Origin: Mycoplasmatota bacterium
Lineage (GTDB): Bacteria; Bacillota_I; Bacilli_A; Izemoplasmatales; Izemoplasmataceae
Reading direction: 5' to 3'
DNA: 25,051 nucleotides
Assembly (NCBI GenBank): GCA_030641535.1
Contig: DAOWHG010000052.1
Coordinates: 1 to 25,051 of the forward strand
A model generated the notes under the pieces. It saw only the letters and a program-made list of their open reading frames with translations, was not told the DNA's origin and did not search any database. The translations under genes and the position numbers were made by a program. Shown here piece after piece: positions 4,046 through 22,511 of the stretch (positions are counted from its first letter, which is position 1; each line of letters opens with the position of its first letter).

Positions 4046-4072
4046 AAAAAGACTGTTTTTAATAGTCTTTTT
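4046..4072 (-). terminator. Intrinsic terminator between the 159-aa hypothetical gene and dnaX
   Basis: AAAAAGACT / AGTCTTTTT inverted repeat overlapping the stop codon, with a U-tract on the minus strand. Confidence 0.7.
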
Positions 4073-4550
4073 AAGAATTTTCCATCATTTTTTTAACTTC
4101 TTCAAGAACAACTAATAATGCAATATTTTCATTAGTATCTTTCTTGAATTTCTTTTCCATAAACTGATAAGTTAAATCCTCTGTCTCACCATTTATTAAG
4201 ATCCGATATGCTTGTTCTAATGACTTCTGAAAACTCGTGTTTCCTCTTAATCTTCTGTAACCTTCGATACTAAAATCACATTGTTCTGTAATGGCTTCGC
4301 CAACCCGTTTTAAATAGTTTGTAAATTGATCATCTTGCTTTGATTCCTTATTTGGAAAGATCCATTCAAACACTTTATCAAACACAAATAGAAAGATAGT
4401 AAACATAAAAGGTACTGATATTAATGAAGTAACCAATACATAATCAATGCTTCCTTCTCTAATAGCTAAATATCCTACATAAACAGCAAGTGCAATTACT
4501 GAAAATAAGAATACAATTCCGTAGTACTTAAATCCTTTTTTTGATTTCAT
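4071..4550 (-). CDS. Hypothetical membrane protein (two N-terminal TM segments plus a soluble C-terminal domain)
   Basis: 159-aa ORF with SD AGGTGA; hydrophobic residues about 9-29 and 37-57; basic N-terminus; no family recognised. Confidence 0.75.
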   Translation of the reverse strand: MKSKKGFKYYGIVFLFSVIALAVYVGYLAIREGSIDYVLVTSLISVPFMFTIFLFVFDKVFEWIFPNKESKQDDQFTNYLKRVGEAITEQCDFSIEGYRRLRGNTSFQKSLEQAYRILINGETEDLTYQFMEKKFKKDTNENIALLVVLEEVKKMMENS

Positions 4551-5967: not shown

Positions 5968-6035
5968 AAAGAATTTCATATAAAAATTAATTGTTCATAA
6001 CTTCAAAGAAATATAAATAATTTTTAATAATTTTC

Positions 6036-6064
6036 TTGTATTTTTACATATTTTTACATATAAT
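6036..6064 (+). promoter_or_regulatory. Sigma-A-type promoter of the hyp-nfeD-RDD-SPFH operon (TTGTAT-17-TATAAT) with tandem TTTTTACATA repeats
   Basis: TTGTAT 6036-6041, 17-bp spacer, TATAAT 6059-6064; TTTTTACATA at 6041-6050 and 6051-6060. Confidence 0.65.
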
Positions 6065-6106
6065 AGGGTTATAACGAATATAAAAAACTTTATAGGAGGT
6101 GAATTT

Positions 6107-6487
6107 ATGTCGTTTGTATGGGCATCAAAGAAGCCAAAAGATGGCGTTGCCACAATGTATGAGTCAAATATAACACTTAATAAATCTGCGAGTTCTCACT
6201 TTGATCATGCATTCAGTGTACTACTAGGATTAGATTTGGAATCTAAAAGAATTGCAGTGAAACCTATTTCAAAGGAAGAACATGAATTAGGAGCAATTCC
6301 AGAAGAAAAGAGACATAAAATTACAGTGAAACCTAGTTATGCTAGAGTTTGTAACAAAAAATTTATGAAAGAGATTGCCAATTTAGTTGGAGTTGATTTA
6401 TCAAACAATAAATCGTTTAAATTTAAGACTAAATGGAGCAAAGAAGATTCAGCACTAGTAATTGATCTGAATCAACCGGAGGTGTAG
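6107..6487 (+). CDS. Hypothetical soluble basic protein, 126 aa; possible tandem swapped-hairpin (AbrB/MraZ-like) fold
   Basis: Strong SD AGGAGGTGA; first gene of the operon; its last codons carry the SD of nfeD; fold call is from the strand/helix pattern only. Confidence 0.8.
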   Translation: MSFVWASKKPKDGVATMYESNITLNKSASSHFDHAFSVLLGLDLESKRIAVKPISKEEHELGAIPEEKRHKITVKPSYARVCNKKFMKEIANLVGVDLSNNKSFKFKTKWSKEDSALVIDLNQPEV

Positions 6488-6489
6488 AT

Positions 6490-6924
6490 ATGGGAGATAT
6501 AATGATTATCATTTGGTTTTCTATTATCATTTTAGCTGCTTTAATCGAAATTAATACAATGGATTTAGCCAGTATTTGGTTTAGTGCTGGAGCATTAATC
6601 GCCTTCATTTTAGCTCTTGTAGGGTTTAATGCATTTGGGCAAGTTGTAGTATTCTTAGTTGTATCGTTAGTATTACTTGTTAGTATTCGTCCAATTGTTA
6701 AGAATTACCTAAAAACTAATGTAATCAGTACAAATACTGATAGATTAGTTGGAAAAGTTGCAGTTTGTACTAAAGATATCAATGTGGGTGAAAGAGGAGA
6801 AGTAAAAATTGATGGTAAATATTGGTTAGCAATTTCATCAGGAGAAGAAGATATAATAATTGATGAAAAAGTTGAAGTACTTGCTATTGAAGGCGTAAAA
6901 CTTATTGTTGATAGGATTTCATGA
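6490..6924 (+). CDS. Short NfeD-family (YbbJ-like) membrane protein with C-terminal OB fold
   Basis: N-terminal TM block (WFSIIILAALIEI...SIWFSAGALIAF...QVVVFLVVSLVLL), then LVGKVAV, GEVKIDGKYWLA, VEVLAIEGVKLIV; lies upstream of an SPFH gene. Confidence 0.9.
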   Translation: MGDIMIIIWFSIIILAALIEINTMDLASIWFSAGALIAFILALVGFNAFGQVVVFLVVSLVLLVSIRPIVKNYLKTNVISTNTDRLVGKVAVCTKDINVGERGEVKIDGKYWLAISSGEEDIIIDEKVEVLAIEGVKLIVDRIS

Positions 6925-7529
6925 GAATAGGTGTTTTTAGAAGATCCGCCGCATTTTTACTAGATGCAATGCCAATAATATTGATTTTAAGCTTATTACT
7001 TAGCTTATTTGTAGGGGATATATTAAAATCACAATATTCTGATTTTGATGAAAAAATAACCACTTATCAGGAGAATATGGATGATTACTATGCTACTCTT
7101 GATGTATATAAAGAACAGCTAGAAGAAGAGGAGATTACTCTTGAAGATTATGAAGAATTATCTTTAGATTTACAAGTTACTTTTGTAAATGATAATGAAG
7201 AATATAGAAATGTAGTCTTCGGGTACTATTCAAACGTAGTATTATTCTATTTATTAAGTTTTACAGTGGTAAATTATTTCTATCACTTAATCCTTAAAGG
7301 ACAAACATATGGCCGTAAACTAATGAAAATTGAGTTATATGGAAATATCACTTGGTATACTTTACTATTAAGAGAAGTTCTATGGAAAAGTGCATTTTGG
7401 GTATTTACATTCTCAATAGGTATTCTAATAGATGTACTATTAGTTGCGTTTACTACCAAAAAGAAGACAATAAGAGATTTATTAACAGAAACGGAATTAA
7501 GATATAGCGGAACAAGTTATCCATTTTAA
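6921..7529 (+). CDS. RDD family membrane protein with a long acidic loop
   Basis: FRRSAAFLLD (R, D), GQTYGRKLMKI, LLLRE, TKKKTIRDLLTET pattern; ATGA overlap with the nfeD stop. Confidence 0.85.
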   Translation: MRIGVFRRSAAFLLDAMPIILILSLLLSLFVGDILKSQYSDFDEKITTYQENMDDYYATLDVYKEQLEEEEITLEDYEELSLDLQVTFVNDNEEYRNVVFGYYSNVVLFYLLSFTVVNYFYHLILKGQTYGRKLMKIELYGNITWYTLLLREVLWKSAFWVFTFSIGILIDVLLVAFTTKKKTIRDLLTETELRYSGTSYPF

Positions 7530-7575
7530 AAACAAAATATGTAAAGAGATAAAAAATTAAAAGGAGGATTTTATT

Positions 7576-8481
7576 ATGACTACATTTGGAATTATCTTAT
7601 TAATAGTCTTAGCAATCGTTGCATTGGCTGTAGTAGGAGCAGCATTTACGATAGTACAACAAGCTAATCGTTACGTTGTTGAAAGATTAGGAGCTTATCA
7701 TCAAACTTTATCTGTTGGATTACACTTTATTATTCCATTTATTGACAGAATTACTAAAAAAGTATCAATTAAAGAACAAGTGGTGGATTTCCCTCCACAA
7801 CCAGTAATCACGAAAGATAACGTTACAATGCAAATTGATACAGTAGTATTTTATCAAGTAACAGACCCAAAATTGTTCACTTATGGAGTTCATAATCCAT
7901 TAAGAGCAATTGAAAATTTAACAGCTACTACATTACGTAATATTATTGGGGAATTAGAATTAGATGAATCACTTACTTCAAGAGATTTAATCAACAGTAG
8001 AATGAGAATCATCTTAGATGAAGCAACAGATCCATGGGGAATCAAAATTCACCGTGTAGAAGTTAAAAACATCATTCCACCAAAAGACATTCGTGAAGCA
8101 ATGGAAAAACAAATGCGTGCAGAACGTGAACGTCGTCAATCAATTCTTATTGCAGAAGGTGAGAAAAGAGCTGCTATCTTAAATGCAGAAGGTGACAAAG
8201 AATCTGCAATTCTTAGAGCAGAAGCAGAAAAAGAAGTTAGAATTAAAGAAGCAGAAGGTCGTGCAAAAGCGATTATCGAAGTTCAAGATGCAACTGCAAA
8301 AGGTATTCAAATGATCAAAAAAGCAGGAGCAGATGAAGCATTCTTACGTTTAGAAGCTTACAAAGCTATGGTTCAAGTAGCTAATGGACAATCTACAACA
8401 TTAATAGTTCCATCTGATTTGCAAGGTATCACTGGATTAACAGCTACAATTGCGGAAACAATGAAAGCTACTAAAAAATAA
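7576..8481 (+). CDS. SPFH/band 7 (stomatin/prohibitin, QmcA-like) protein
   Basis: N-terminal TM, VVERLG, GLHFIIPFID, QPVITKDNV, NLTATTLRNIIGELELD, WGIKIHRVEVKNI, AMEKQMRAERERR plus AEG repeats; SD AAGGAGG. Confidence 0.95.
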   Translation: MTTFGIILLIVLAIVALAVVGAAFTIVQQANRYVVERLGAYHQTLSVGLHFIIPFIDRITKKVSIKEQVVDFPPQPVITKDNVTMQIDTVVFYQVTDPKLFTYGVHNPLRAIENLTATTLRNIIGELELDESLTSRDLINSRMRIILDEATDPWGIKIHRVEVKNIIPPKDIREAMEKQMRAERERRQSILIAEGEKRAAILNAEGDKESAILRAEAEKEVRIKEAEGRAKAIIEVQDATAKGIQMIKKAGADEAFLRLEAYKAMVQVANGQSTTLIVPSDLQGITGLTATIAETMKATKK

Positions 8482-8492
8482 TAAAAGAACTG

Positions 8493-8525
8493 AAAAGAGA
8501 ATCTCAATTTGAGATTCTCTTTTTT
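8493..8525. terminator. Bidirectional intrinsic terminator between convergent SPFH and asnS genes
   Basis: Perfect inverted repeat AAAAGAGAATCTCAA (8493-8507) / TTGAGATTCTCTTTT (8509-8523) with A- and T-tracts. Confidence 0.9.
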
Positions 8526-8528
8526 ATA

Positions 8529-9916
8529 TTAAAATTCACAATTTCTCGGTGTTCTTGGAAAAGGAATGACGTCTCTAATGTTTTCAACACCTGTAAGGTA
8601 CATTAACATACGATCGAATCCAAGTCCAAAGCCAGCGTGCTTACATCCTCCGTACTTACGAAGGTCTAAATACCACCATAAATCCTCTTTTGGAACATTC
8701 ATTTCTTCCATTCTTTTTTCTAAGTATTCCAAACGTTCTTCTCTTTGGCTTCCACCAATTAATTCTCCACTACCAGGAACAAGTAAATCCATTGCTGCAA
8801 CTGTTTCTCCATCATCATTTAAACGCATGTAAAATGCTTTTATATCTTTCGGCCAATCAATTACAAATACTGGACCATCAAAATGAGAAACAAGATATTT
8901 TTCGTGTTCTGTAGCTAAATCTCTTCCAAATTCAGGCTTGTTTTCAAACTTCACAGAAGCATTCAACAATACTTCAATCGCTTGTTTGTGCGTTATTCTG
9001 TTGAATTTTCCCGTCAAGACTTTGTCTAGTTTATCAAATAACCCTTTTTGAACAAATTTATTGAAAAACTCCATTTCATTAGGTGCTTTATCCATTACAT
9101 ATTTAACAATATATTTAACCATATCTTCGGCTAAATCCATATCGTCATGGATATCAGCAAATGCAATTTCAGGCTCAATCATCCAAAACTCACTTGCATG
9201 TGTTGTTGTATTTGAATTTTCCGCCCTAAATGTAGGCCCAAATGTATATACGTCTTTGAATGCAAGAGCAAAAGCTTCAGCCTGTAGTTGTCCAGACACT
9301 GTTAAGTTAGCCTTTTTTTGAAAGAAGTCTTTTTTATAGTTAATTTCTCATCCTCATTCTGAGGAACGTTTTCTAAATCAAGAGTAGTAACTTTAAATGT
9401 TTCTCCCGCACCTTCAGCATCACTTGCAGTGATTATAGGAGTTGCAACGTTGATGAAATTTCTCTCTTGAAAGAAAGTATGAATAGCATGAGTTAATAAA
9501 CTTCTAACTCTAAATACCGCAGTAAATAAATTAGTTCTAGGTCTTAGATGAGCGTTTTCCCGTAAAAATTCACGAGTATGTCTTTTCGGCTGAATAGGAT
9601 AATCTTCCAATGAATCACCAAGCAGTTCAACAACTCTTGATTTAATTTCAAATGGCTGTTTCATATTAGGAGTATTTACTAATATTCCAGTAACTCTCAT
9701 AGCACTTCCAACACGATATTTTTGAACATCTTTAAAATTATCAAGAAATTCATTTTCATAAACTACCTGAATTGTCTCAAAGAAAGTTCCATCATTTAAA
9801 TTTATGAATCCGAATTCTTTTTGAGCTCGATTATTTCTAATCCACCCAAACAAGGTTACTTCTTGTTGATCCAAATCTTTAAAACTTCGATATAGTTCTC
9901 TAACTGACGTTTTCAT
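8529..9916 (-). CDS. asnS: Asparagine--tRNA ligase, split into two frames (9302..9916 and 8529..9299) by a 1-nt deficit between 9349 and 9302
   Basis: 5' part: OB fold [21 protein letters not shown], motif 1 TPII, EGAGETF. 3' part: [58 protein letters not shown]. Upstream T-box carries an Asn (AAC) specifier. Confidence 0.93.
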
Positions 9917-9937: not shown

Positions 9938-10148
9938 AAAAAACGCCCTTAAACAAACGTTTAAGGACGAAAATATTTCCGCGGTACCACCTTAATTCAA
10001 AAAGCACTCAATCCTTTAACGCAGGAATACGAATGGGTCTACTTAATTCTTCCATCACTCATGGTGTTATTCATACTTATCTTATAATCTAGCTTTCACC
10101 ATCCTAGAATCGCTTAATACAGTTTTAAGTATTACTTGTCCAATCATC
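9938..10148 (-). promoter_or_regulatory. T-box riboswitch leader (Asn specifier AAC) with terminator
   Basis: Minus strand: GA motif GATTGGACAAGTA, AGCGA/GGATGGTGAAAGC stem I apex, specifier loop GAAT-AAC-ACC (AAC at 10068-10066), T-box AATTAAGGTGGTACCGCG, terminator CGTCCTTAAAC...GTTTAAGGGCG plus U-tract. Confidence 0.92.
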
Positions 10149-10160
10149 GTTTATAAACAT

Positions 10161-22283: not shown

Positions 22284-22492
22284 AAAAAAAATAAAAATCA
22301 CCCTTAATTTAAGGGCGACTTATTTTCGCGGTACCACCTTATTTAGGGGTTTCCCCCTATCTTGAGTGTTTTTTAACGGGAACAACCCGGGGAATATTAA
22401 TCCCACTCAGAGGTAGATTTCATACGTATATCTTTATTAGCTCTCACCATTGCTAACTCTCTTAAAAAGATAGTTGTATTACTTAGCCTCAT
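22284..22492 (-). promoter_or_regulatory. T-box riboswitch leader (Ser specifier UCU) with terminator
   Basis: GATGAGGCTAAGTA GA motif, AGAGA/GCAATGGTGAGAGC apex, specifier loop GAAA-TCT-ACC (22417-22415), T-box AAATAAGGTGGTACCGCG, terminator GTCGCCCTTAA/TTAAGGGTGAT plus a long U-tract. Confidence 0.92.
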
Positions 22493-22511
22493 CAGCGTAT
22501 TTCTTGTCTTG

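Follow-up and report, generated by a model that had tools for sequence, protein, structure and literature searches.

A conserved NfeD-SPFH operon of Izemoplasmatales headed by a small protein of predicted MraZ-like architecture and a phased promoter array

We analyzed a stretch of 25,051 nucleotides (nt) from a Mycoplasmatota bacterium of the order Izemoplasmatales (assembly GCA_030641535.1, contig DAOWHG010000052.1, positions 1 to 25,051; hereafter the window), which belongs to an assembly, G000, that is 66% complete. Four open reading frames (ORFs) lie head to tail on its + strand at 6107-8481: a gene without a family name that we call g1, nfeD, a gene for an RDD protein, and a gene for an SPFH protein (Table 1). 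All four frames are open under translation table 11, so that no alternative genetic code is necessary. The genes are closely spaced. The sequence GGAGGTG at 6478-6484, within the end of g1, stands 5 nt 5′ of the nfeD ATG; nfeD and the RDD gene share an ATGA overlap at 6921-6924; and a gap of 46 nt, with AAAGGAGGA at 7560-7568, precedes the ATG of the SPFH gene. In front of g1 is a sigma-70-type promoter with TTGTAT (6036-6041) and TATAAT (6059-6064) separated by 17 nt. At the other end, a hairpin flanked by a T-run and, on its opposite side, by an A-run is placed between the SPFH stop and the stop of the convergent asnS, and no terminator-like site was found on the + strand inside the operon. 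Promoter-like matches across the operon region show no excess (15 versus 18.4 in shuffles), which speaks neither for nor against an internal promoter; given this shortfall relative to the shuffles, the matches at 7169 and 7918 were not considered further. One marine-sediment metatranscriptome contains contigs that are 90-99% like parts of g1 and SPFH. None of them bridges genes, and they were not used as evidence for an operon transcript, DNA carry-over being possible. The four ORFs, their junctions, the single promoter, and the closing bidirectional terminator are all present in the sequence as a first-pass annotation of this DNA had stated, and a single transcription unit is the best explanation for the layout.

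Table 1. Features of the g1-nfeD-RDD-SPFH locus and the second array site of the same assembly (aa, amino acids)
Feature	Position	Strand	Details
g1	6107-6487	+	ORF, 126 aa; Shine-Dalgarno sequence AGGAGG at 6094-6099
nfeD	6490-6924	+	ORF, 144 aa; Pfam PF01957, E 6.6e-15
RDD gene	6921-7529	+	ORF, 202 aa; Pfam PF06271, E 3.6e-11
SPFH gene	7576-8481	+	ORF, 301 aa; Pfam Band_7 PF01145, E 1.3e-44
Promoter with five 10-bp-phased decamers	6016-6065	+	sequence reading
Bidirectional intrinsic-terminator hairpin	8493-8523	both strands	14-bp stem, 3-nt loop; common to convergent asnS
Second AAATAATT array, -35 TTGTAT	G000 contig C55 (within L083 1410-6520, which includes the operon downstream)	-	28.8 bits

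This arrangement is kept throughout the order. We detected g1 in 34/41 relatives searched, and all 20 regions that were fetched, from three families, carry g1, nfeD, the RDD gene, and the SPFH gene followed by the convergent asnS; in two of them the RDD gene is so divergent that tblastn missed it, yet it is present. Scanning species-representative genomes with a narrow g1 alignment gave 80 named loci, all from Izemoplasmatales and including those of Izimaplasma HR2 and ZiA1, Liberiplasma polymorphum, and Xianfuyuplasma; g1 homologues carry the source names Candidatus Izimaplasma or Izemoplasma. Four of these loci are cut off too early to be informative. The other 76 (67 complete, 7 reaching a contig end, and 2 that have an additional SPFH-like ORF) all have the order g1-nfeD-RDD-SPFH, an arrangement that is far beyond chance. 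The orthologues differ in how fast they have diverged, with identities to the window proteins of 24-68% for RDD, 44-90% for g1, and 63-96% for SPFH. One genus of the same order (G026/G028; loci L194 and L195) harbors the nfeD-SPFH pair with neither g1 nor RDD and with no clear promoter array, and g1 and RDD seem to have been lost there together.

Outside the order, the cassette is smaller. Among 399 genomes sampled from the phylum and class to which GTDB assigns the window, g1 was found in 161, distributed over 17 of the 33 sampled families, and NfeD in 259; in every family the count of g1 is at most that of NfeD. Twenty loci from nine families outside Izemoplasmatales have g1 followed directly by nfeD and then by the SPFH gene, often with a stop/start overlap of 1-4 nt, and their flanking genes are otherwise unrelated. 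Likewise, g1 is followed on its own strand by an NfeD domain, ~250-270 nt further downstream, in 52/52 outside-order genomes listing both, a set that overlaps with the 20 loci read by eye. Another 20 lineages, one of them the genus G026/G028 of Izemoplasmatales itself, do not have g1 and carry a plain nfeD-SPFH pair. No RDD gene was found in the cassette in the 20 loci of the nine families or in the 20 g1-less lineages, and in family f5 the slot between nfeD and SPFH is occupied by a small, unrelated ORF for a membrane protein, whose SHOCT match is below the threshold. The widely conserved core is a triad and not a set of four genes; its members are g1, an NfeD of the short type, and an SPFH protein of the QmcA type. 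What stands between nfeD and the SPFH gene is variable, and the RDD gene was inserted into this slot as a lineage-specific addition. The first-pass annotation had proposed a four-gene operon, to be checked by whether g1 and RDD stay beside nfeD-SPFH in other genomes. Within Izemoplasmatales they do so in all 76 informative loci; beyond the order, where the cassette is g1-nfeD-SPFH or has an unrelated ORF in the slot, RDD is not a member of the widely conserved unit. The link to wall-less cells suggested by the same annotation is weak, because g1 also occurs in records labelled Erysipelotrichaceae.

The core NfeD-SPFH pair is itself ordinary and of the textbook kind. Its NfeD is one of the short YbbJ-type proteins, in which a hydrophobic membrane part at the N-terminus is followed at the C-terminus by an OB-type NfeD domain (PF01957 at residues 84-141, 55.5 bits versus a cut-off of 29.1; PDB sequence matches 2k5h and 3cp0; alignment of 38 sequences). 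This domain is the sole Pfam match in the 144-aa protein, which has no protease domain. The SPFH protein consists of an N-terminal membrane anchor, an SPFH domain covering the whole PF01145 profile (152.7 bits versus a cut-off of 23.6), and a coiled-coil tail. It matches the E. coli QmcA chain 8z5g_A over its full length (residues 7-298, E 2.2e-66), the next PDB matches being stomatins (~1e-33 to 1e-35), HflK (1e-18), and prohibitin (1e-12), and it falls below the cut-offs of the NCBIfam HflK and FloT models (15.7 bits versus 700 for FloT). The solved complex, 8z5g, contains 26 copies of QmcA and belongs to the SPFH-NfeD pair QmcA-YbbJ. By homology, the QmcA-type SPFH protein and NfeD of the window should build a membrane-anchored cage with NfeD as the partner. 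In all loci read, nfeD precedes the SPFH gene within a single operon, and RDD stands between them only in Izemoplasmatales.

The inserted protein is a polytopic membrane protein whose first hydrophobic segment is followed by a long acidic loop. Its RDD match (PF06271, 43.9 bits versus a cut-off of 24.1) spans profile positions 3-136 of 137 and was repeated in the genome scan. The RDD family is named for a conserved Arg and two Asp; as read from the sequence rather than from a residue-level alignment, the protein has Arg 7/8 and Asp 15 near its N-terminus and an Arg-Asp pair near its C-terminus. A word-index search returned only 44 close homologues, the length ranges from 163 to 327 aa among Izemoplasmatales loci, and the cassette RDD and the other RDD of the genome have only the GQTxGKK region in common.

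The remaining gene of the triad, g1, encodes a protein with no match in Pfam (E up to 0.1) or NCBIfam. An exhaustive profile search of 1.8 billion representatives delineated a family of 269 representatives at 50% identity, nearly all of them stand-alone proteins of ~120-130 aa, the named ones being called “hypothetical”. Its longer members (P0219, P0223, P0227, P0235, and P0253) yielded no informative fused domain, and a language-model atlas search with g1 returned only the family’s own unnamed clusters. The protein is soluble and Lys-rich, with an isoelectric point (pI) of 9.3 (family median 8.6, 68 members), and its conserved positions include W5, N25, G41, R80, and K105. An AlphaFold2 model built from 68 diverse sequences has a predicted local distance difference test score (pLDDT) of 93.3 and a predicted template modelling score (pTM) of 0.83. 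It consists of two tandem beta-beta-alpha-beta-beta units. The first is predicted to comprise strands 13-17 and 21-24, helix 26-32, and strands 37-43 and 48-54; the second would follow in identical order at 69-74, 79-82, 84-94, 104-111, and 116-125. The g1 model holds two tandem SpoVT/AbrB-like units in one chain. When it was aligned against each of 48,161 PDB representatives, the best structural match was MraZ 1n0e (Z 5.4, root-mean-square deviation 3.2 Å, 87 residues). The plant B3 DNA-binding domains that came next are ~2 Z lower (Z 3.0-3.3), and SpoVT and the AbrB N-domain (Z 2.4 each) cover the second unit of g1 only. Similarly, in Foldseek searches against the PDB only MraZ chains reached a probability of 0.44-0.66 (template modelling (TM) score 0.45, E 0.36), nothing being found at E 0.001 or better with either g1 model, and the g1-family profile found nothing among PDB sequences at E up to 10. 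MraZ itself (PF02381) was not found in the 31 Izemoplasmatales genomes searched; control genomes gave matches. The first-pass annotation had described gene 1 as a regulator-like orphan. With ~270 representatives at 50% identity, it is no orphan; its regulator-like character gains support from the confident two-repeat model, from MraZ as the best solved match, and from the promoter array that tracks g1, described below. The g1 fold was also seen in uncharacterized phage proteins (Lactococcus phage KSY1 Gp105, E 1.3e-5, TM 0.68), and a g1-shaped domain in phage large serine recombinases (ESM Atlas, TM 0.68).

The promoter of g1 is built of 10-bp-phased AAATAATTTT repeats, which form five consecutive decamers, AATAATTTTT, AATAATTTTC, TTGTATTTTT, ACATATTTTT, and ACATATAATA. 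The -35 TTGTAT is part of TTGTATTTTT and the -10 TATAAT part of ACATATAATA. Two upstream AATAAT units and the -35 are the conserved part of the array; in the window the phasing continues through the -35 and the spacer, the spacer part not being conserved among close relatives. Across the g1 upstream regions of 66 non-identical loci, AAATAATT units recur at a spacing of 10 bp and abut the -35, with two units in the window’s family and three in family f2. A position weight matrix (PWM) made from these regions has the consensus AAATAATTTTAAATAATTTTCTTG. Spacings of 10 from ATAAT to ATAAT occur 55 times in the 66 regions and nearby spacings at most 10 times, and there is no genome-wide preference for a spacing of 10.

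The array is close to unique in the genome. The PWM scan returned two strong sites, the g1 promoter at 27.0 bits and a site on contig C55 (Table 1), the next one scoring 17.9 bits. A motif-free measure of 10-bp self-similarity, computed over about a million positions (mean 11.4, standard deviation (sd) 3.0), ranked the g1 promoter first in the genome (29/40, z ~5.8) and the C55 site second. In the 150 nt upstream of g1, the mean period-10 score is 20.4 for Izemoplasmatales promoters (14-16 at periods 8, 9, 11, and 12) and 17.8 for the other g1-bearing families, as compared with 15.5 upstream of nfeD in the 20 g1-less lineages and 14.5 (sd 2.0) in AT-rich control windows. Rank tests against the g1-less set gave p = 7e-7 when all g1 promoters were taken together and p = 0.011 when only the g1 families outside Izemoplasmatales were compared, values that overstate the case because the genomes are related and not independent. 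The array tracks g1: nfeD-SPFH lineages without g1 lack it. Some distant families use other repeat units (TTGAAT, AATACA, or AAAATTC types), and in others the unit is located within the spacer or over the -10; this fits an operator better than an UP element. As a separate observation, family f15 (L075 6541-6999, - strand; L077 5562-6011, + strand) has a truncated SPFH paralogue of ~150 aa upstream of g1 (Band_7 match 2.2e-8), with the repeat array between the two.

The C55 array lies 165 nt upstream of an operon encoding an ABC ATPase-FtsX fusion, a second ATPase, a second FtsX permease, and an RDD protein. Only two RDD genes were detected in the assembly, that of the cassette and that of the C55 operon, and both are array-fronted. 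Full-length orthologues of the ABC/FtsX-RDD operon exist in only 3/40 relatives. In G003, of the same genus, the C55-type array is kept with a 2-nt shift; a conserved two-operon regulon, which was considered, had to be narrowed to the genus, since the operons of G018 and G024 show no recognizable repeats. The C55 leader also contains a GC-rich hairpin followed by a T-run and, judged by this pattern, may be an attenuator. In G018 (L086) and G024 (L087), the ABC/FtsX-RDD operon adjoins the g1 cassette with only asnS and a T-box between them, which suggests an old neighborhood that was broken up in the window’s genus.

We propose, with moderate confidence, that g1 is a MraZ-style autoregulator of the cage operon, a reading that draws on the fold model, the promoter repeats, and the analogy with MraZ. 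The protein would bind the 10-bp-phased AAATAATT direct repeats that abut and run into its own -35, and its binding, whichever the sign of the regulation, would determine how strongly the entire operon is expressed, in the way that MraZ controls its own promoter. The NfeD and QmcA-type proteins encoded downstream would then form the usual cage. In the window genome, the C55 array would bring in the ABC/FtsX operon with the other RDD gene, giving a two-operon regulon. The RDD protein of the cassette is most simply taken as a membrane protein whose production is coordinated with that of the cage, and it may be a partner or a client of the cage.

Several observations weigh against autoregulation by g1. 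The structural match to MraZ is modest by all three of its scores (Z, Foldseek E, and TM). In sequence, g1 matches neither the MraZ (PF02381) nor the AbrB (PF04014) profile, and the DXXXR motif is absent from its 126 aa as read, the nearest candidate being D43 with K47 and R48; g1 is MraZ-like in architecture and not a member of the MraZ family. Acidic proteins (pI < 6) make up 9/68 of the family members. The array is weak or unclear in the g1-bearing families f5 and f16 and in part of f6 and f23, and at the orthologous ABC operon of other genera (G018, G024) the C55-type array is not recognizable. The relatedness of the genomes, already mentioned, tempers the statistics on its co-occurrence with g1. 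Finally, the conserved pair of upstream repeats, which covers about -55 to -36, occupies the position of an UP element. Phased T-tracts also bend DNA, and with this position the array could act without any factor.

A different emphasis was given by the first-pass annotation, which envisaged a self-regulated membrane-stress or microdomain system whose SPFH cage encloses or scaffolds RDD as a client or sensor. We regard this as possible but doubtful. The place of the RDD gene between nfeD and SPFH, its ATGA overlap with nfeD, and the constancy of this order in 76/76 informative Izemoplasmatales loci speak for it, and the presence of both RDD genes of the genome in the two array-bearing operons points in the same direction, as does the other small membrane protein in the slot of family f5. 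There are precedents in the inhibition of SppA by SppI (PMC7568657) and in the stabilization of proteins by FloA-NfeD (PMC11222466). Nevertheless, the RDD gene is missing from the cassette of nine other g1-bearing families and of 20 g1-less lineages, so the cage does not need RDD, and RDD evolves much faster than its neighbor genes.

The main rival to autoregulation, although we consider it unlikely, is that g1 does not bind DNA and is instead a cytoplasmic subunit, cap, or adaptor of NfeD-QmcA, kept in a fixed ratio to NfeD through translational coupling, and that the array is a factor-independent element, either bent DNA or an UP-like site for the C-terminal domain of the RNA polymerase alpha subunit. 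The abutting or 1-4-nt overlapping g1/nfeD frames of many lineages are typical for complex subunits, and g1 was never found without an adjoining nfeD among the loci and coordinate pairs examined. The UP-element position of the upstream repeats, the acidic family members, and the modest fold match to DNA binders count in its favor as well. A complex prediction with NfeD, SPFH, and g1 (ipSAE 0.00 in two runs, against a mark of 0.32) weighs neither way. However, the array is essentially unique to two promoters of the genome and is not a general strong-promoter feature, and periodicity 5′ of nfeD is at control level in the 20 g1-less lineages. In addition, the repeats of some families are at places from which no UP element can work, within the spacer or across the -10, and the nearest solved fold is that of a repeat-binding autoregulator.

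For RDD, a further explanation, again an improbable one in our view, is that of a passenger in a permissive slot of an old nfeD-qmcA operon, sharing transcription with the cage and nothing else. A narrow distribution, fast divergence with variable length, and a slot that is elsewhere empty or filled by an unrelated ORF are what such a passenger would show. Against it, RDD is kept without loss in 76/76 informative loci from at least three families, its start overlaps the nfeD stop, and the g1-less genus G026/G028 is also without RDD, a hint that the parts are kept or lost together. A more ambitious proposal, that g1 founds a family of single-chain MraZ-like transcription factors for SPFH-NfeD cages and would couple membrane state to transcription by partitioning between cage and operator, tethered to the QmcA dome or to the cytoplasmic domain of NfeD until membrane stress releases it to the operator, or else removed from the operator by that stress, appears very unlikely at present, and if true it would be a minimal envelope-stress circuit for Mollicutes-related bacteria that reaches RDD-containing transporter operons.

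From a biological perspective, to our knowledge the regulation and the targets of bacterial SPFH-NfeD cages are largely open questions, and RDD proteins are poorly understood. As far as we found, the g1 partner, the array, and the RDD insertion appear to be undescribed in the literature. With g1, the cage pair acquires a conserved third partner from an unannotated family, always encoded by the first gene and accompanied by a plausible candidate operator. Transcription factors are scarce in Mollicutes-like genomes, so that it would be useful to add a new family whose binding site is nearly unique. The slot between nfeD and SPFH has received different membrane proteins in different lineages, and these proteins may indicate which clients the cage has. 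The cassette is present in at least one cultured relative, Liberiplasma polymorphum.

The neighborhood of the operon has features of its own. The convergent asnS of the window (8529-9916, - strand) is split by a change of frame into an ORF of 204 aa (9302-9916) and one of 256 aa (8529-9299). In relatives it is a single intact gene of 461-477 aa, and the split in this metagenome-assembled genome is either a frameshift or an assembly error. Two T-box leaders on the - strand, at 9960-10156, upstream of asnS, and at 22308-22504, exceed the Rfam gathering score with 108.9 and 124.1 bits, respectively. On the other side, a gene for a 159-aa membrane protein without a Pfam match (4071-4550, - strand) is divergent from mnmE and syntenic order-wide. 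In most other Izemoplasmatales, the interval between mnmE and g1 contains a divergent PP-loop gene (TtcA-like, PF01171; e.g., L014 5167-5976). It is absent from the window (5968-6106) and from three loci of the same genus (G003, G004, and G006), where the gap is 0.1-0.2 kb; at other loci called same-genus (G002, G005, G007, and G009), the mnmE-g1 gap is still ~1 kb.

Known systems account for parts of this locus. The B. subtilis yqeZ-floA and yuaF-floT operons are flotillin operons with NfeD. The window resembles such Firmicute operons in coupling an NfeD gene to an SPFH scaffold gene and in a proposed role in membrane-protein stabilization under stress, a role illustrated in S. aureus, where FloA-NfeD stabilizes unfolded membrane-associated proteins (PMC11222466). 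It differs from them in that its SPFH protein is of the QmcA/stomatin type and not a flotillin, in that no sigma-W-type promoter was seen, and in that control appears, from the promoter sequence, to be exerted by an operon-encoded small protein and a repeat array. The closest counterpart of the cage pair is E. coli QmcA-YbbJ, an SPFH-NfeD complex (PDB 8z5g; Tan et al. 2024, Structure, cited in PMC12624060), with which the window shares the full-length QmcA match, the short YbbJ-type NfeD, and the position of nfeD upstream of SPFH in one operon. Unlike the E. coli pair, nfeD of the window type is always preceded by the 126-aa MraZ-like gene and, in Izemoplasmatales, separated from SPFH by RDD. 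Our literature search found no description of g1 or RDD as a partner of the E. coli pair and no report joining NfeD, SPFH, and RDD.

For RDD proteins, B. subtilis SppI inhibits the protease SppA, with which it associates in a membrane complex (PMC7568657), and an RDD protein of Halobacillus andaensis is a Na+(Li+,K+)/H+ antiporter (PMC5996927). As with SppI, the third gene of the window encodes a bona fide RDD protein (PF06271) beside a membrane quality-control partner. Its partners, however, are NfeD and QmcA and not SppA, and this NfeD is without the ClpP/SppA-like protease domain of long NfeD proteins. The long acidic loop also sets the cassette RDD apart from both SppI and the H. andaensis protein. 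For g1, the comparison is with MraZ, the first gene of its own operon, which autoregulates by binding a series of direct repeats (PMC8475190); in Mycoplasma genitalium, the MraZ motif occurs only at the mraZ promoter (PMC8475190). The two proteins differ in sequence (g1 has no PF02381 or PDB-profile relationship and no DXXXR), in length (126 aa versus 141 residues in the matched MraZ chain 1n0e), in their repeat units (AAATAATT at the g1 promoter versus AAAGTG[T/G] or the E. coli MraZ boxes), and in the genes downstream, which serve a membrane scaffold at the g1 locus and cell division in the dcw operon of MraZ. What g1 has in common with MraZ is a predicted pair of tandem AbrB-like units in one chain, its place as the first gene of the operon that it putatively controls, and a promoter with direct repeats in helical phase whose motif is nearly unique in the genome.

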